Origin: Escherichia coli
Lineage (GTDB): Bacteria > Pseudomonadota > Gammaproteobacteria > Enterobacterales > Enterobacteriaceae
Assembly: GCF_051903065.1 (NCBI RefSeq)
Contig: NZ_CP178438.1
Strand: one strand, 5' to 3'
DNA length: 64,000 bases
Shown here: positions 3,356 to 38,447 of the stretch, one piece after another
How the letters are laid out: every line of letters begins with the position of its first letter
Numbering within the stretch: position 1 is the first letter of the stretch
The notes under the pieces: model-generated
The model's input: the letters and a program-made list of their open reading frames with translations, nothing else
Databases searched by the model: none
Told to the model about the DNA's origin: nothing
Program-made: the position numbers and the translations under genes

Positions 3356-3907
3356 TTAATATATATCAGAAGCAGGCAGGCTGGAGGATTTCTGCACAAG
3401 TCCGGTACAGGTTTGGCGCTGATAGTGTTGATACTTCCGTAATGCGATGCGGTAATTGTTGGTGCTGGTGGTGGGCAGCCACGGGGCGAGGATTTCATCA
3501 AGGAAACCGTCCTGCAGCTGATCGAGGGAAATATTTTGCTCGTGTAGATGATTCCCCAAACGGCGCAGACGAACGACATATTCACGCACCGTACCAGGGC
3601 TCATTTCAGTTTGCTCAAAAAGAAATTGCTTAAAGCCGATAATATCGAAAAAATCACTCTGCGTTTTGCAATGTAAATCACCGCAAAATCGGCACAATGC
3701 CGCCCATGATTTTTGTTCCGTTTGCCAGCCATTTTCATCAAGCAGCGTGTCCAGGCGGGAAATCTCGATTTTATTCACTATTTTGCCGTCGCGAACTAAG
3801 GTAATGCGATCGAGTAATTTACGGCAATGCGCGCAATGGGTCTGGCTGTGTTTAAAGTCTTTAAGATAGCGGCTTAATGGCCGTCTTTTCAGGTGCTGCA
3901 CCATCAT
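3356..3907 (-). CDS. fliZ: Flagellar regulatory protein FliZ
   Basis: ORF 3356..3943 trimmed to 183 aa (MMVQHLKRRPL...); immediately downstream of fliA on the same strand. Confidence 0.85.
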   Translation of the reverse strand: MMVQHLKRRPLSRYLKDFKHSQTHCAHCRKLLDRITLVRDGKIVNKIEISRLDTLLDENGWQTEQKSWAALCRFCGDLHCKTQSDFFDIIGFKQFLFEQTEMSPGTVREYVVRLRRLGNHLHEQNISLDQLQDGFLDEILAPWLPTTSTNNYRIALRKYQHYQRQTCTGLVQKSSSLPASDIY

Positions 3908-3952
3908 TAAGAACTCCTGGTAGTCAAAGTTAAAGTGCGGCATTTACTGACG

Positions 3953-4672
3953 TTATAACTTACCCAGTTTAGTGCGTAACCGTTTAATGGCCTGGCTGTG
4001 TAACTGACTGACCCGCGATTCCCCGACCTCCAGCACCGCGCCAATCTCTTTGAGATTCAGCTCTTCCTGGTAATAGAGGGTTAATACCAGTTTTTCGCGC
4101 TCCGGCAACGTTTCGATAGCTTCCATCACCCGCTGGCGCAGATTACTGTCCAGCAGTTGTTGTAGCGGGTTTTCTCGCTGATGATCATCAGTAACCAGTT
4201 CAATGCTATCGCCGTGCTCTTCGCGCCACTCATCGTAGGAGAAGAGCTGGCTGTTATTGGTGTCGAGCAACATTTGGCGATAGTCGGCAATATCGATCCC
4301 TAAACGTTCCGCTACCTCAGTTTCCGTGGCGTTGCGGCCAAGTTCCTGCTCCAGTTGCCCTATTGCCTGTGCCACTTCACGCGCGTTGCGTCGCACGCTG
4401 CGCGGCACCCAGTCACGGCTGCGAAGTTCATCCAGCATAGCGCCACGGATACGCTGCACTGCGTAAGTTGTAAATGCCGTTCCTTGTAGGGCGTCATAGC
4501 GTTCGACGGCATTAAGTAACCCAATGCCGCCCGCCTGTAGCAGATCGTCAAGTTCCACGCTCGCGGGCAGTCGAACCTGCAGGCGCAATGCTTCGTGACG
4601 CACCAGCGGGACATAACGCTGCCACAGCGAGTGTTTATCCATTACACCTTCAGCGGTATAGAGTGAATTCAC
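3953..4672 (-). CDS. fliA: RNA polymerase sigma-28 factor for flagellar operons
   Basis: 239-aa ORF with sigma-70 family regions 2 and 4; canonical position next to fliC. Confidence 0.95.
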   Translation of the reverse strand: MNSLYTAEGVMDKHSLWQRYVPLVRHEALRLQVRLPASVELDDLLQAGGIGLLNAVERYDALQGTAFTTYAVQRIRGAMLDELRSRDWVPRSVRRNAREVAQAIGQLEQELGRNATETEVAERLGIDIADYRQMLLDTNNSQLFSYDEWREEHGDSIELVTDDHQRENPLQQLLDSNLRQRVMEAIETLPEREKLVLTLYYQEELNLKEIGAVLEVGESRVSQLHSQAIKRLRTKLGKL

Positions 4673-4794
4673 GATAAACAGCCCTGCGTTATATGAGTTA
4701 TCGGCATGATTATCCGTTTCTGCAGGGTTTTTAATCGGACGATTAGTGGGTGAAATGAGGGGTTATTTGGGGGTTACCGGTAAATTGCGGACAG

Positions 4795-4817
4795 AAAAAA
4801 CCCCGCCGGCGGCGGGG
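4795..4817 (-). terminator. Rho-independent terminator downstream of fliC
   Basis: Minus-strand GC-rich hairpin CCCCGCCGCCGGCGGGG followed by a T-run, about 175 nt past the fliC stop. Confidence 0.55.
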
Positions 4818-4849
4818 AAGCACGTTGCTGACAAATTACCATTCATGTT

Positions 4850-4958
<109 letters not shown>

Positions 4959-4991
4959 TGCCGTCAGTCTCAGTTAATCAGGTTACGACGA

Positions 4992-6290
4992 TTAACCCTG
5001 CAGCAGAGACAGAACCTGCTGAGGAACCTGGTTAGCTTTGGACAGCACGGAGTTACCGGCCTGCTGAACGATCTGCGCTTTAGACATATTTGACACTTCG
5101 GTCGCATAGTCGGCATCCTGAATACGGGACTGCGCTTCAGACAGGTTAGTGGTGGTGTTATTCAGGTTGGTTACAGCAGAGCTCAGACGATTCTGTACCG
5201 CACCCAGAGAAGAACGGAATTTATCAACAGAAGCGATAGCTTTGTCCAATAGTGCCAGTGGGTTCTGAGTTGCAGTACCTTTCAGCTCAGTAGTTGCACC
5301 AGTACCGCTCAGTTGCAGAGTACCGGTATCAACAGCTGTAGTTGGAGCTGCAACACCGCTGTTCGCCAGAACGTCAACACCGGTCGCACCAGCCTGATAG
5401 TTTTTACCCTGAATGGTTACGTAACCAACAGCTGCACCGTTGGCGTCAGAAGTTACTTTGATCAGCTGACCGTTCTGAGTCGCTCCAGTAACACCATTAG
5501 TAGCGTCATCATAGGTGACGTCAGTGGTGTTCAGGTTAACTGCACCAGAGGCCGCGTTTACAGACACAGCATAGTTGTCGCTGCCAGAAGAAACAACGAA
5601 GGTACCAGTACCGTCACCAGCAGAGTCCTGAACTTCGTGCAGGCTCAGGGTGCTTGCATTCACGCCCAGTTTAGTTGCTACTGCGCTCAGGTCCACGTTC
5701 TTCGATGCAGCAGTAGTATTGCCGATCGTAGTGATAGAATCGCTCAGTTTCAGGGAGTTCTGAGAAACAGAGAAGCCGCTCAGACCCAGAGTAGAAGAGT
5801 CTATTTTCTGCAGGTCGATAGAGATAGTCTGGCCATCGTTCGCGCCAACCTGAATTGCCATAGAACCGTTTTTAGCCAGTACGTTCACGCCGTTAAACTG
5901 GGTCTGACCAGAGACGCGGTCAATTTCATCCAGACGAGATTTAATTTCATCCTGAATAGAAGAGAGATCGGAATCAGAGTTGGTACCAGTGGTGGCCTGC
6001 ACGGTCAACTCACGCACACGCTGCAAGTTGTTGTTAATCTCTGACAGCGCGCCTTCTGCTGTCTGTGCTAGAGAAATACCGTCATTGGCGTTACGTGCAG
6101 CCTGAGTCAGACCTTTGATGTTAGAAGTGAAGCGGTTAGCAATCGCCTGGCCCGCAGCGTCATCTTTAGCGCTGTTAATGCGCAGACCAGAAGAGAGGCG
6201 CTCGATAGAAGTCGACAGCGCAGACTGGTTTTTGTTGATGTTGTTCTGAGTGATCAGCGAGAGGCTGTTGGTATTAATGACTTGTGCCAT
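4992..6290 (-). CDS. fliC: Flagellin (432 aa; conserved N- and C-terminal D0/D1 domains, variable central domain)
   Basis: N-terminus [54 protein letters not shown] and C-terminus ...[11 protein letters not shown] are canonical flagellin; the central part is Thr/Ser/Gly/Ala/Asn-rich. Confidence 0.95.
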
Positions 6291-6366
6291 GATTCATTTT
6301 CCTGTTTTCAAGTCTACGGTTTAAGTATTGGGCTTCCACCCTTCGGCTTCGTCGCCGTCAACCCTG

Positions 6367-6393
6367 TTATCGTCTGGTCACTCACAACCTTTA
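6367..6393 (-). promoter_or_regulatory. Sigma-28 (class 3) promoter of fliC
   Basis: Minus-strand TAAAGGTT, 11-nt spacer, GACGATAA, about 75 nt upstream of the fliC ATG; matches the TAAAGTTT-N11-GCCGATAA consensus with few mismatches. Confidence 0.55.
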
Positions 6394-6466
6394 GAATTTT
6401 TTTCTAGCGGTCGAAATACTCCCCTTCCTCGTTGCTGTTCGTGTCATTAAGCCAAAAAATAAATCG

Positions 6467-6493
6467 TAAACTTTGCCCCGCTTACGCCGATAA
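6467..6493 (+). promoter_or_regulatory. Sigma-28 (class 3) promoter of fliDST
   Basis: TAAACTTT, 11-nt spacer, GCCGATAA, about 40 nt upstream of the fliD ATG; near-perfect consensus. Confidence 0.65.
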
Positions 6494-6535
6494 CCCCGGT
6501 ATTCGTTCTATACGTCGCATGATTAAGGAATCTAT

Positions 6536-7951
6536 ATGGCTAGTATTTCAACGCTTGGGGTTGGGTCGGGGCTGGACTTAAGCAGCATCCTTGACAGTCT
6601 GGAGGCGGCAGAAAAATCTACCCTGACGCCGATATCAAAACAGCAAAGCTCTTATACCGCGAAACTGAGCGCCTACGGGACGCTGAAAAGCGCACTAGAG
6701 AGCTTCCAGACAGCCAACACAGCACTGAATAAAGCCGATTTATTTACCGCCACCTCAACCACCAGCAGTTCATCGGCTTTCAGCGCCACCACCACGGGCA
6801 GCGCGATTGCCGGGAAATACACCATTAGCGTTAGCCAACTGGCGCAGGCACAAACGCTGACCACAAAAATTAGTCAAAAAGACAGTAAAGCTGCCATCGC
6901 AACCAGCGATAGCGTACTGACCATCCAGCAAGGCGGCGGTAAAGATCCGGTCACGATTGATATCAGCGCGGCTAACTCGTCACTTTCCGGCATTCGCGAT
7001 GCCATTAACAACGCCAAAGCTGGTGTCAGCGCCAGTATCATCAATGTGGGAAACGGCGAATATCGTCTGTCCATCACCGCTAACGATACGGGCAACGATA
7101 ACGCTATGAAACTTAGCGTCAGCGGCGACAGCGCCCTGGAAAGTTTTATGGGTTACAACGGAACGTCGGGTGATAGCAGCAATGGCATGATTGAAAGCGT
7201 CACCGCGCAAAACGCCAAACTGACAGTCAATAACGTTGAGATTGAAAACAGCAGTAACACTATCAGCGACGCGCTGGAAGATATCACACTCAACCTGAAT
7301 GACGTCACCACCGGTAATCAGACACTGACCATCAGTAAAGACACATCCAAAGCTGAAAATGCAGTCAAAGCATGGGTGGATGCCTATAACACATTGCAGG
7401 ATACATTCAGTAGCTTAACCAAATACACCGCTGTCGATGCCGGAGCAGAAAGTCAGGACTCCAGTAATGGAGCATTACTTGGTGACTCCACACTGCGTAC
7501 CATCCAGACACAGCTTAAAACCTTGCTCGCCAATACTCACAGCAGTTCAAACTATAAAACGCTGGCACAGATTGGCATTACCAGCGATGCCAGTACCGGC
7601 AAGCTGGAAATCGCGACCGACAAACTGCAAACGGCACTAAAAAAAGATGCCGCAGGCATCGGTGAAATGTTTATAGGTGACGGTAAAAGTACAGGGGTAA
7701 CTACCGGCATTAGTAGCAACCTGACCAGTTGGCTCTCTTCCACCGGGATAATCCAGGCCGCAAAAGATGGCGTCAGCAAAACGCTGAATAATTTGACCGA
7801 CCAGTACAACGCAGCCAGTGAGCGTATCGATACCTTAATGACGCGCTATAAAGCCCAGTTCACCCAATTAGATGTGTTAATGAACTCGCTTAACTCCACC
7901 AGTAGCTATCTGACACAGCAGTTCGACACCTCAAATAGCAACTCGAAATAA
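6536..7951 (+). CDS. fliD: Flagellar filament capping protein (hook-associated protein 2)
   Basis: 471-aa ORF, divergent from fliC, followed by fliS and fliT. Confidence 0.9.
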   Translation: MASISTLGVGSGLDLSSILDSLEAAEKSTLTPISKQQSSYTAKLSAYGTLKSALESFQTANTALNKADLFTATSTTSSSSAFSATTTGSAIAGKYTISVSQLAQAQTLTTKISQKDSKAAIATSDSVLTIQQGGGKDPVTIDISAANSSLSGIRDAINNAKAGVSASIINVGNGEYRLSITANDTGNDNAMKLSVSGDSALESFMGYNGTSGDSSNGMIESVTAQNAKLTVNNVEIENSSNTISDALEDITLNLNDVTTGNQTLTISKDTSKAENAVKAWVDAYNTLQDTFSSLTKYTAVDAGAESQDSSNGALLGDSTLRTIQTQLKTLLANTHSSSNYKTLAQIGITSDASTGKLEIATDKLQTALKKDAAGIGEMFIGDGKSTGVTTGISSNLTSWLSSTGIIQAAKDGVSKTLNNLTDQYNAASERIDTLMTRYKAQFTQLDVLMNSLNSTSSYLTQQFDTSNSNSK

Positions 7952-7966
7952 TCTTCAGGAGAAACT

Positions 7967-8377
7967 ATGTACGCGGCAAAAGGCACCCAGGCCTATGCAC
8001 AAATTGGCGTCGAAAGCGCCGTAATGAGCGCCAGCCAGCAACAGCTGGTCACCATGCTATTTGATGGAGTGCTGAGCGCACTGGTTAGGGCGCGCCTGTT
8101 TATGCAGGACAACAATCAGCAAGGCAAAGGCGTCTCTTTGTCAAAAGCGATCAACATCATTGAGAACGGGCTGCGGGTGAGTCTTGATGAAGAGAGCAAA
8201 GACGAACTAACCCAAAACTTGATTGCTCTTTATAGCTATATGGTCAGGCGCTTGCTGCAAGCCAATTTACGCAACGATGTCTCCGCAGTCGAAGAGGTGG
8301 AAGCATTAATGCGTAATATTGCCGATGCCTGGAAAGAGTCTTTACTCTCCCCTTCTTTGATTCAGGACCCAGTCTGA
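7967..8377 (+). CDS. fliS: Flagellin-specific export chaperone
   Basis: 136-aa ORF; operon position. Confidence 0.9.
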
Positions 8378-8742
8378 TGAACAATGCACCGCATTTGTAT
8401 TTCGCCTGGCAACAACTCGTCGAAAAAAGCCAGCTCATGTTACGCCTGGCAACAGAAGAACAGTGGGACGAACTCATCGCCAGCGAAATGGCGTATGTGA
8501 ATGCGGTGCAGGAGATTGCACACCTGACTGAAGAGGTTGAGCCGTCCACCACGATGCAGGAGCAGCTCCGCCCGATGCTGCGCCTGATTCTCGACAACGA
8601 AAGCAAGGTAAAGCAGTTATTACAGATTCGGATGGATGAACTGGCGAAACTGGTCGGTCAGTCATCGGTGCAAAAATCGGTGTTAAGTGCCTATGGCGAT
8701 CAGGGCGGCTTTGTGCTGGCTCCGCAGGATAACCTCTTTTGA
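8377..8742 (+). CDS. fliT: FliD-specific chaperone / FlhDC anti-activator
   Basis: 121-aa ORF whose start overlaps the fliS stop (ATGA). Confidence 0.85.
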
Positions 8743-8819
8743 ATCTTAAAGAGCCAATGGCTCGCGAATAATCCGATTACGGCTACGCTTCTAATGTTCC
8801 CCTTGAATGGAGTCGAAGA

Positions 8820-10940: not shown

Positions 10941-12146
10941 ATGTCATGGCAGCAATTCAAACACGCCTGGTTGATTAAATTCTGGGCCCCCATCCCTGCG
11001 GTCATCGCGGCGGGTATTCTCTCTACTTACTATTTTGGCATTACTGGCACCTTTTGGGCTGTCACGGGTGAATTTACCCGTTGGGGCGGTCAGCTCCTGC
11101 AGCTGTTTGGCGTCCATGCTGAAGAGTGGGGTTATTTTAAAATTATCCATCTGGAAGGATCGCCATTAACCCGCATCGACGGGATGATGATCCTCGGTAT
11201 GTTTGGCGGCTGCTTTGCCGCAGCGCTGTGGGCCAACAATGTCAAACTACGCATGCCGCGTAGCCGTATCCGCATTATGCAGGCCATCATTGGCGGCATT
11301 ATCGCCGGTTTTGGCGCGCGTCTGGCAATGGGCTGTAACCTGGCGGCATTCTTTACCGGTATTCCTCAGTTCTCGCTGCATGCCTGGTTCTTTGCCATCG
11401 CCACTGCCATTGGTTCATGGTTTGGCGCGCGCTTTACCCTGCTGCCCATCTTCCGTATTCCCGTGAAAATGCAGAAAGTTTCTGCCGCCTCACCGCTGAC
11501 GCAAAAACCGGATCAGGCGCGGCGTCGTTTTCGTCTCGGGATGCTGGTCTTTTTCGGCATGCTGGGCTGGGCGCTGCTCACGGCGATGAACCAACCAAAA
11601 CTGGGGCTGGCAATGCTGTTTGGCGTCGGCTTTGGTTTACTGATTGAACGTGCGCAAATCTGCTTTACTTCGGCGTTCCGCGATATGTGGATCACCGGAC
11701 GTACCCATATGGCGAAAGCAATCATTATTGGTATGGCGGTGAGTGCCATCGGGATCTTCAGTTACGTACAGTTAGGCGTTGAACCCAAAATCATGTGGGC
11801 GGGACCAAACGCGGTAATTGGTGGTTTACTGTTTGGTTTTGGCATCGTGCTGGCTGGCGGCTGCGAAACCGGCTGGATGTACCGCGCGGTAGAAGGCCAG
11901 GTGCACTACTGGTGGGTCGGTCTGGGCAATGTGATCGGCTCAACGATTCTGGCGTATTACTGGGATGATTTCGCTCCGGCGCTGGCCACCGACTGGGACA
12001 AAATCAACCTGCTGAAAACCTTTGGTCCGATGGGTGGCCTGCTGGTGACATATTTGCTGTTGTTTGCTGCGCTGATGTTGATTATCGGCTGGGAAAAACG
12101 CTTCTTCCGCCGTGCGGCACCGCAGACTGCTAAGGAGATCGCATGA
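10941..12146 (+). CDS. yedE: YedE/YeeE-family inner-membrane transporter (selenium/thiosulfate-related)
   Basis: 401-aa polytopic membrane ORF; stop overlaps the yedF start. Confidence 0.8.
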   Translation: MSWQQFKHAWLIKFWAPIPAVIAAGILSTYYFGITGTFWAVTGEFTRWGGQLLQLFGVHAEEWGYFKIIHLEGSPLTRIDGMMILGMFGGCFAAALWANNVKLRMPRSRIRIMQAIIGGIIAGFGARLAMGCNLAAFFTGIPQFSLHAWFFAIATAIGSWFGARFTLLPIFRIPVKMQKVSAASPLTQKPDQARRRFRLGMLVFFGMLGWALLTAMNQPKLGLAMLFGVGFGLLIERAQICFTSAFRDMWITGRTHMAKAIIIGMAVSAIGIFSYVQLGVEPKIMWAGPNAVIGGLLFGFGIVLAGGCETGWMYRAVEGQVHYWWVGLGNVIGSTILAYYWDDFAPALATDWDKINLLKTFGPMGGLLVTYLLLFAALMLIIGWEKRFFRRAAPQTAKEIA

Positions 12147-29862: not shown

Positions 29863-29949
29863 AAATCCCGACCCTGAGGGGGTCGGGATGAAACTTGCTT
29901 AAGCAAGAAGCACTTAAAAAATTCGTTACACCAGGAAATCTGATGTGTT
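29863..29949 (-). ncRNA. dsrA: DsrA small regulatory RNA (Hfq-dependent; activates rpoS translation, represses hns)
   Basis: Minus-strand sequence AACACATCAGATTTCCTGGTGTAACGAATTTTTTAAGTGCTTCTTGCTTAAGCAAGTTTCATCCCGACCCCCTCAGGGTCGGGATTT matches recalled DsrA, including the terminator stem-loop. Confidence 0.85.
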
Positions 29950-38349: not shown

Positions 38350-38447
38350 TTATACCTTTTTATTTTTCTGTGTCATGATGCCTCCGTTATTAGCCTTTTA
38401 TCGTCTTGTTTATATTTTTTGGGCCGGCATGATGCCGGCTTTTTTTA
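38350..38447 (+). ncRNA. rseX: Candidate small RNA (RseX-like) ending at a strong intrinsic terminator
   Basis: Hairpin GCCGGC-ATGAT-GCCGGC followed by TTTTTTTAT at 38423..38448 in the yedR-yedS intergenic region; the 5' end is not determined. RseX is recalled to map to this intergenic region in K-12. Confidence 0.3.

Follow-up and report, generated by a model that had tools for sequence, protein, structure and literature searches.

How is transcription of the divergent flagellar genes fliC and fliD controlled from the DNA that lies between them? The question was addressed in a 64-kb stretch of E. coli DNA (the window, meaning the whole stretch that was analyzed), in which the gap between the two genes spans exactly positions 6291–6535. 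According to the list of open reading frames, the gap of 245 bp ends on one side at the ATG of the minus-strand gene fliC (6290) and on the other at that of the plus-strand gene fliD (6536). An earlier note on this DNA had described the gap as carrying divergent sigma-28 promoters, one for each gene, and had assigned both to class 3 of the flagellar hierarchy. The analyses below examine the two motifs, their conservation, their relation to the well-studied K-12 locus and the additional regulatory input that fliD appears to receive.

Genomic Context of the fliC–fliD Intergenic Region

The genes that frame the region, together with the gene for the sigma factor itself, were assigned by protein family searches as follows.

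3953–4672, minus strand: fliA, the sigma-28 gene, 239 aa (NCBIfam NF005413, 363 bits against a cutoff of 201)
4992–6290, minus strand: fliC, flagellin, 432 aa (NCBIfam NF005294, FliC/FljB, 496 bits against a cutoff of 387; RefSeq annotation)
6536–7951, plus strand: fliD, filament cap, 471 aa, first gene of fliDST (NCBIfam NF005955, 685 bits against a cutoff of 387; RefSeq annotation)

The window is chromosomal DNA of E. coli, and positions 4900–8800 are 100% identical to strain 23CRST027, for which the RefSeq gene order is tcyJ–fliZ–fliA–fliC on one side and fliD–fliS–fliT–amyA on the other. The FliA protein encoded in the window is identical to that of K-12 over all 239 aa, and promoter specificity is therefore transferable from K-12 to the window.

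Few other features were detected in the gap. No Rfam family was matched in 6291–6535, and the open reading frames and repeats found there amounted to mechanical frames of 21–49 aa and two short inverted repeats, which were rejected as features. A terminator-like hairpin at 6486–6465 on the minus strand overlaps the fliD promoter; it is weak, with three G–C pairs and an 8-nt loop, and was taken as a chance occurrence. A scan for sigma-70-like promoters with a threshold of at least 9 of 12 matches gave no hit in the region; an activator-dependent class 2 promoter would escape such a scan.

Several neighboring loci were recorded in the course of the analysis. In K-12, the fliC 3′ UTR encodes the sigma-28-dependent sRNA FliX (FliX sRNA paper); the matching stretch of the window, 4673–4991 on the minus strand, is about 97% identical to K-12 and includes a strong terminator-like hairpin at 4817–4801. 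Rfam placed the sRNA genes DsrA and RseX at 29863–29949 (minus strand) and 38357–38446 (plus strand), and three tRNA genes at 48174–48260, 49252–49324 and 63631–63703. Between yedL and fliE (13882–17297) lie a frameshifted DUF5503 gene, a GNAT fragment, a gene for a leucine-rich-repeat protein and an integrase fragment, and this stretch looks like a decayed island beside the fliE–fliF class 2 promoters.

Two Divergent Sigma-28 Motifs

The sigma-28 consensus compiled by Hollands et al. (2009) is TAAAGTTT-n11-GCCGATAA, and fliC and fliD are counted there among eight well-characterised sigma-28 promoters of E. coli (PMC2859248). A motif of this architecture faces each of the two genes in the window.

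6393–6386, minus strand: fliC sigma-28 −35 octamer TAAAGGTT, 7 of 8 consensus positions, with G for consensus T at position 6; invariant in a 17-sequence alignment
6385–6375, minus strand: fliC promoter spacer, 11 nt; variable between species, at a mean of 0.41 bit (1.7 bits for the octamers)
6374–6367, minus strand: fliC sigma-28 −10 octamer GACGATAA, 7 of 8, with A for consensus C at position 2 and the CGA core intact; invariant in the 17 aligned sequences
6467–6474, plus strand: fliD sigma-28 −35 octamer TAAACTTT, 7 of 8 against TAAAGTTT; invariant in the 17-sequence alignment and in nearly all of 91 loci (see below)
6475–6485, plus strand: fliD promoter spacer, 11 nt; mean information across species 0.22 bit
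6486–6493, plus strand: fliD sigma-28 −10 octamer GCCGATAA, 8 of 8, a perfect consensus

The fliD motif thus deviates from the full consensus at a single position and the fliC motif at two, one per element. The motifs lie where the earlier note had placed its divergent promoters and agree with the K-12 FliA motifs defined by ChIP-seq (PMC4183435). Its description of the fliD element as near-perfect was confirmed, as was its statement that the fliC motif is imperfect in both halves, with one mismatch each in TAAAGGTT and GACGATAA; the elements, which it had called hexamers, are octamers.

When both strands of the window were scanned with the consensus, allowing up to three mismatches, four sites were recovered against 0.75 expected from shuffled sequences, and no shuffle reached four. 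The fliC and fliD motifs were the only sites in the 64 kb with two mismatches or fewer, a class for which about 0.03 sites would be expected in 128,000 positions by our own calculation with equal base frequencies. A weight matrix was also built from 23 published K-12 FliA ChIP sites, from which fliC and fliD were excluded. The matrix placed the fliD site at rank 1 in the window (19.2 bits) and the fliC site at rank 12 (12.1 bits), and it recovered the fliA motif at 4697–4724 (minus strand) and the fliL motif at 24198–24225 (plus strand), both of which are the motifs defined by ChIP in K-12. Because the fliC site scores low with the matrix, its assignment is based on context, conservation and identity to K-12 and not on the score alone. 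The site at rank 2, GGAAGAAGCGTTTTTCCCAGCCGATAAT (12081–12108, minus strand, 17.2 bits), is located in yedE on the antisense strand and is absent from the 52 FliA sites published for K-12.

Conservation across Enterobacterales

Species-representative genomes were scanned with a flagellin N-terminus pattern, which returned 120 loci, 91 of them with a divergent fliD within 1.2 kb. A sigma-28 motif with at most three mismatches was present on both sides in all 91. On the flagellin side, 82 loci have two mismatches, 6 have one and 3 have three; on the fliD side, a single mismatch predominates (71 loci, with two mismatches in 18 and three in 2). By our own calculation, again with equal base frequencies, a match with no more than two mismatches would arise by chance on one strand of 450 nt about once in 10,000. 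The 11-nt spacing holds in 91 of 91 loci, and each spacer column holds 0.2–0.4 bits of information, each octamer column 1.7–1.9 bits. At fliC the −10 octamer stands 66–95 nt from the ATG (median 77 nt); for fliD the median of this interval is 41 nt.

The particular forms found in the window are also the prevalent ones. The combination of TAAAGGTT and GACGATAA at fliC is the commonest, occurring in 45 of the 91 loci and in genera that include Escherichia, Enterobacter, Kluyvera, Pantoea, Erwinia and Cedecea, and at fliD 69 of the 91 have TAAACTTT with GCCGATAA. In Citrobacter, Buttiauxella and Salmonella arizonae, fliC carries TAAAGTTC with GCCGATAC, and in Serratia it carries TAAAGGTT with GCCGATAC. 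The locus of Salmonella and Citrobacter resembles that of the window in its divergent genes, in a sigma-28 motif on each side, in the fliD motif TAAACTTT-N11-GCCGATAA and in an FlhDC-like block at the same distance, but differs in its fliC motif (TAAAGTTC-N11-GCCGATAC) and in the interval from the fliC −10 element to the ATG, which is 69 nt there and 76 nt here.

Two short contigs assigned to a Collinsella sp. metagenome-assembled genome (L079 and L080) carry enterobacterial fliC–fliD regions, one K-12-like and one Salmonella/Citrobacter-like; these most likely reflect contamination of the bin.

Comparison with the K-12 Locus

The fliC/fliDST locus of K-12 (Fitzgerald et al. 2014, PMC4183435) belongs to the same species and shares with the window the gene pair, its divergent layout and the FliA protein. 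The −35 and −10 octamers of fliC and the −35 octamer of fliD are identical between the two, and both spacers are 11 nt long in each. The differences are concentrated elsewhere. The fliD −10 octamer is ACCGATAA in MG1655 and GCCGATAA here, one base nearer to consensus; both spacer sequences differ, as do several positions of the right half-site of the FlhDC-like block; and the allele in the window has a 19-bp deletion in the interval that separates the −35 elements, with about 15% of aligned columns differing. With respect to the −10 octamer, it is K-12 that is atypical among the aligned E. coli alleles, since strains O157:H7 and O127:H6 also carry GCCGATAA. In vivo occupancy by FliA is published for both sites in K-12 (PMC4183435).

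The fliC Promoter

In K-12, the FliA ChIP-seq motif of fliC, TAAAGGTTGTTTTACGACAGACGATAAC (TAAAGGTT…GACGATAAC), has an occupancy (FAT) of 110, the highest of 52 sites, and fliC RNA falls from 2319 to 11 upon deletion of fliA (PMC4183435). The gene also has the top RNA level, and lower occupancies are reported for the tar promoter, which has no mismatch (FAT 57), and for fliD (FAT 43) (PMC4183435). Across all 52 K-12 sites, mismatch count and FliA occupancy are negatively correlated (Spearman rho = −0.46, p = 0.0006), but at the top of the occupancy range mismatch count fails to predict rank, and fliC, with two mismatches, comes first. The fliC promoter is the only strongly bound K-12 site whose −10 octamer has a base other than C at position 2, a deviation that is kept across many genera. 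The mismatches at fliC are no mark of a weak promoter.

A further element adjoins the fliC promoter on its upstream side.

6394–6404, minus strand (A's at 6403–6397): conserved A-tract GAAAAAAATTC, a candidate proximal UP-element subsite, directly upstream of the fliC −35 octamer at about −43 to −37

The columns of this tract of seven A's are conserved in 76 unique promoter-anchored sequences, and the corresponding T-run is invariant in the 17-sequence alignment. Its placement is that of a proximal UP-element subsite, an alpha-CTD contact site for which an A/T-rich tract at about −38 to −46 is expected, and it may act as one. Fredrick and colleagues reportedly described, in 1995, an UP element upstream of the sigma-D promoter of the B. 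subtilis flagellin gene hag. The two promoters are alike in that each serves a flagellin gene, is read by a factor of the sigma-28 family and has an A-rich tract immediately 5′ of its −35 octamer or hexamer; they differ in that B. subtilis belongs to another phylum than E. coli and that the UP element of E. coli fliC is a candidate only. No paper on UP-element function at E. coli fliC was found in the literature consulted.

Transcription of fliC is predicted to begin downstream of the −10 octamer within the following leader.

6291–6360, minus strand: predicted fliC 5′ UTR, about 68–72 nt, with the Shine-Dalgarno sequence AGGA; its start is placed from the −10 octamer

At aer, Hollands et al. 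(2009) mapped the start to 6 bp past the −10 octamer (PMC2859248), and the rule applied here, taken from aer, places a sigma-28 start about 6–7 nt after that octamer. By this rule the fliC start would fall at about 6358–6362. In Enterobacter, whose fliC octamers are the same as those in the window, the fliC start determined by RNA-seq agrees with the K-12 −35 and −10 elements (Wiegand et al., PMC10705468). Mapped start coordinates for fliC or fliD were also sought in the ROSE in-vitro transcription and genomic SELEX papers, which give nothing for these two promoters, and the FliX sRNA paper contains no fliC 5′-end data.

Near its 5′ end the fliC leader contains two short hairpins, at 6357–6344 and 6341–6330 (CGGC/GCCG and GGGU/GCCC). 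A consensus fold of 20 sequences spanning genera keeps both stems while the loops vary, with one pair changed on both sides. The fold of the leader is not significantly more stable than that of shuffled sequences (z = −1.5), and with a single covarying pair no regulatory RNA element is claimed.

One further observation concerns the −10 element. The sequence GTTAT occurs at 6366–6370 on the plus strand, where it falls within the sequence complementary to the fliC −10 octamer, and is the target-adjacent motif of prophage-encoded TldR RNA-guided repressors that silence host fliC (PMC10705468); in the fliC promoter, the guide of such a repressor would be directed at the variable spacer (PMC10705468).

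Probable FlhDC Input at the fliD Promoter

On the fliD side, the predicted leader is short.

6498–6535, plus strand: predicted fliD 5′ UTR, about 35–38 nt, with the Shine-Dalgarno sequence AAGGA; its position is set from the −10 octamer

Folding gave no stable structure for this leader in comparison with shuffled sequences (z = +1.15), and by the spacing rule given above the fliDST start would lie at about 6498–6501.

The K-12 data indicate that sigma-28 is not the only input to fliDST. FliA occupies the K-12 motif TAAACTTTGCGCAATTCAGACCGATAAC (TAAACTTT…ACCGATAAC) with a FAT of 43, and deletion of fliA lowers fliDST RNA from 633 to 356, which is not significant, while deletion of flhD or flhC lowers it from 633 to 3 (PMC4183435). 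FlhDC was detected at the fliDST promoter by ChIP-qPCR, overexpression of FliA in an flhD deletion restores fliD expression, and fliAZ, fliLMNOPQR and fliDST are all dual regulated in K-12 (PMC4183435). For Salmonella/Citrobacter, the fliC and fliDST promoters are given as class 3, with class 2 in addition for fliD (Kutsukake & Ide 1995 and Wozniak et al. 2010, as cited in PMC4183435). The proper label for fliD is dual class 2/class 3 and not class 3. The sigma-28 promoter that the earlier note assigned to fliD is real, but the assignment to class 3 holds in part, as the K-12 operon also depends on FlhDC. Expression independent of FliA, which the same note had named as the observation that would speak against its reading, is half borne out for fliD by the K-12 RNA values (633 to 356), and the reality of the sigma-28 promoter is unaffected.

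A candidate for the FlhDC site lies between the two sigma-28 promoters.

6406–6448, no strand assigned: FlhDC-box-like bipartite block, AGCGG-tcg-AAATACTC, 11-nt spacer, TGCTGTTC-gtg-TCATT; probably the site through which a class 2 (sigma-70) fliD promoter is activated

The FlhDC box is said to have the form AAYGS-N2-3-AAATARCG, followed by a spacer of 10–12 nt and then the inverse, as put forward by Stafford and colleagues in 2005. Against this consensus, the block at 6406–6448 matches at 18 of 26 positions and lies at the same place in K-12; 69 positions in the window score 18 or more. The scan also recovered the regions upstream of fliA (20 of 26) and fliL (19 of 26). A match of this kind, taken alone, is too degenerate to serve as evidence, and the block was retained owing to its conservation and to the published FlhDC binding in K-12. 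In the multi-genus alignment, two more conserved blocks are apparent between the sigma-28 promoters, (TAG)..CGAAATAC and TTATTC..GCCATTAA, and the blocks GAAATA and TTATTC…CATTA stand at fixed offsets from the fliD −35 element in 85 unique sequences from across the order as well as in the 17-sequence alignment. Taken with the K-12 binding data, this conservation suggests that 6406–6448 is probably the FlhDC activator site of a class 2 (sigma-70) fliD promoter, a feature that the earlier note had overlooked.

The position of the corresponding −10 element can be proposed from its distance to the box. The first six bases of TAAACTTT, TAAACT (6467–6472), form a candidate sigma-70 −10 hexamer that overlaps the sigma-28 −35 octamer. 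At fliD, the nearest −10-like hexamer (TAAACT) follows the box after 18 nt; the corresponding intervals to GATAAT are 19 nt for fliA and 20 nt for fliL. Because these distances are alike at the three promoters, the −10 element of the class 2 fliD promoter is proposed to overlap the −35 element of its class 3 promoter. The fliDST promoter thereby resembles those of fliAZ and fliLMNOPQR, in which an FlhDC-box-like match likewise stands 18–20 nt upstream of a candidate sigma-70 −10 element overlapping a FliA motif. It differs from them in that the hexamer at fliA and fliL is GATAAT and falls in the sigma-28 spacer or −35 region, whereas the sole candidate at fliD is the weaker TAAACT, whose use is proposed from its spacing.

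The fliA and fliL control regions themselves (4697–4775, minus strand, and 24148–24225, plus strand) each contain a FliA motif that is the K-12 ChIP motif with GATAAT embedded in it, and an FlhDC-box-like match 19–20 nt upstream of that GATAAT.

The right half-site of the FlhDC-like block reads TGCTGTTC-GTG-TCATT in the present allele and CTTATTC-CCG-CCATT in most genera. Since it departs from the cross-genus consensus at several positions, FlhDC input at fliD might be weaker in this allele than in K-12.

Weighing of Alternative Explanations

Based on the data above, the 245-bp region is, with high confidence, the standard E. coli fliC–fliDST control region, comprising divergent FliA promoters and a probable FlhDC input to fliDST. 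Short degenerate motifs do arise by chance, and 11 other sites in the window outscore the fliC site in the weight matrix, so that both motifs could in principle be fortuitous, with the genes transcribed from other promoters. Such an explanation has a negligible probability. It would have to account for two sites of no more than two mismatches that are 73 bp apart, each oriented toward a late flagellar gene, against an expectation of about 0.03 for the whole window; for the conservation of both motifs in 91 loci whose spacers vary; and for their identity or near-identity to sites bound by FliA in K-12. The region also yielded no sigma-70-like promoter at 9 or more of 12 matches from which the genes might be transcribed instead. 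The earlier note had further proposed that the mismatches at fliC may tune relative expression, that is, that they weaken this promoter relative to fliD. The overall correlation between mismatches and lower occupancy at the 52 K-12 sites, and the near invariance of C at −10 position 2 among strongly bound sites, speak for this proposal. However, the identical K-12 element has the highest FliA occupancy (110, against 57 for tar with no mismatch and 43 for fliD) as well as the top RNA level, and GACGATAA and TAAAGGTT, together the commonest form across genera, have been maintained over many of them with no drift. Flagellin is, moreover, required in much larger quantity than FliD. The proposal is not supported by these comparisons and is judged highly improbable.

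How far sigma-28 matters at fliD is more evenly balanced. In practice, fliD could be a class 2 gene for which the FlhDC-activated sigma-70 promoter is the main one, the sigma-28 promoter serving as a back-up at high FliA levels, as in filament repair or swarming, and the chances of this are rated as even. The K-12 RNA, which shows no significant fall without fliA and nearly vanishes without flhD (633 to 356 and 633 to 3, respectively), argues for it, as do the presence of FlhDC at the K-12 promoter by ChIP-qPCR and the conserved FlhDC-box-like block at a fixed distance from the fliD −35 element. The restoration of fliD expression by FliA overexpression in the flhD deletion was also listed in its favor. 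On the other hand, FliA does occupy the K-12 fliD site (FAT 43), and the present allele combines a perfect −10 octamer with an FlhDC right half-site more degenerate than that of K-12, such that the balance may differ here. It is important to note that a predominantly class 2 fliD adds to, and does not exclude, the assignment of the region as the standard control region with divergent FliA promoters.

For that control region, a simple model can be outlined. FliA–RNA polymerase would read TAAAGGTT-N11-GACGATAA on the minus strand to start the fliC mRNA near 6358–6362 and TAAACTTT-N11-GCCGATAA on the plus strand to start the fliDST mRNA near 6498–6501. The A-tract upstream of the fliC −35 element may contribute to promoter strength in the manner of an UP element, despite the two mismatches. 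In the flagellar hierarchy, the anti-sigma factor FlgM is exported once the hook–basal body is finished. Because FliA reads both promoters, their firing would await completion of the hook–basal body and export of FlgM. In addition, FlhD4C2 probably binds 6406–6448 and would activate a sigma-70 promoter that overlaps the sigma-28 −35 element or lies slightly upstream of it; with this promoter added, fliD would become a dual class 2/class 3 operon.

Allele Dimorphism and Possible Exchange

The intergenic region belongs to a divergent segment of the chromosome. Positions 5782–8800, which cover the 5′ end of fliC, the intergenic region and fliDST, are 81.5% identical to K-12, whereas the fliA/fliZ side (3900–5248) is 96.6% identical. 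Two types of the intergenic region occur within E. coli. Identity to the present allele is 95% or more in about 1,325 complete genomes and about 70% in about 3,190 that carry the K-12/O157 type; roughly a quarter of complete E. coli genomes have the allele seen here. The pattern looks like that of a divergent haplotype that goes together with the flagellin type.

Part of the region may have been exchanged more widely. The fliC leader and promoter (6291–6405), including the spacer GTGAGTGACCA and the short form without the 19 bp, are almost identical in Pseudocitrobacter faecalis, whereas the flanking coding DNA of that species is just about 80% identical. Judged from this contrast in identity, a small segment bearing the fliC leader and promoter seems to have been exchanged between genera. 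In another strain, E. coli 2015C-3121 (L004, positions 515–914), homology to the intergenic region ends just past the fliC promoter and the A-tract, and an IS1 transposase gene starts about 100 bp beyond, at the place expected for fliD.

Implications

The fliC and fliD sigma-28 promoters were already known, and what is described here is textbook biology in a non-K-12 allele, of little importance beyond correct annotation. Two cautions apply to the reading of such promoters. Mismatch count against the consensus is no predictor of strength among strong FliA promoters. The K-12 reference, furthermore, has an atypical fliD −10 octamer, ACCGATAA; GCCGATAA is the form in the majority of the E. coli alleles examined and of related genera.

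More generally, the features of the present allele, which is 19 bp shorter, has an altered right half-site and carries a perfect fliD −10 octamer, could be thought to shift fliDST from the mainly class 2 control measured in K-12 to mainly FliA control. We consider such a shift unlikely. It would carry the FliT/FliD feedback on FlhDC along with it and, if true, would mean that a textbook regulatory network is wired differently in different natural lineages of E. coli.
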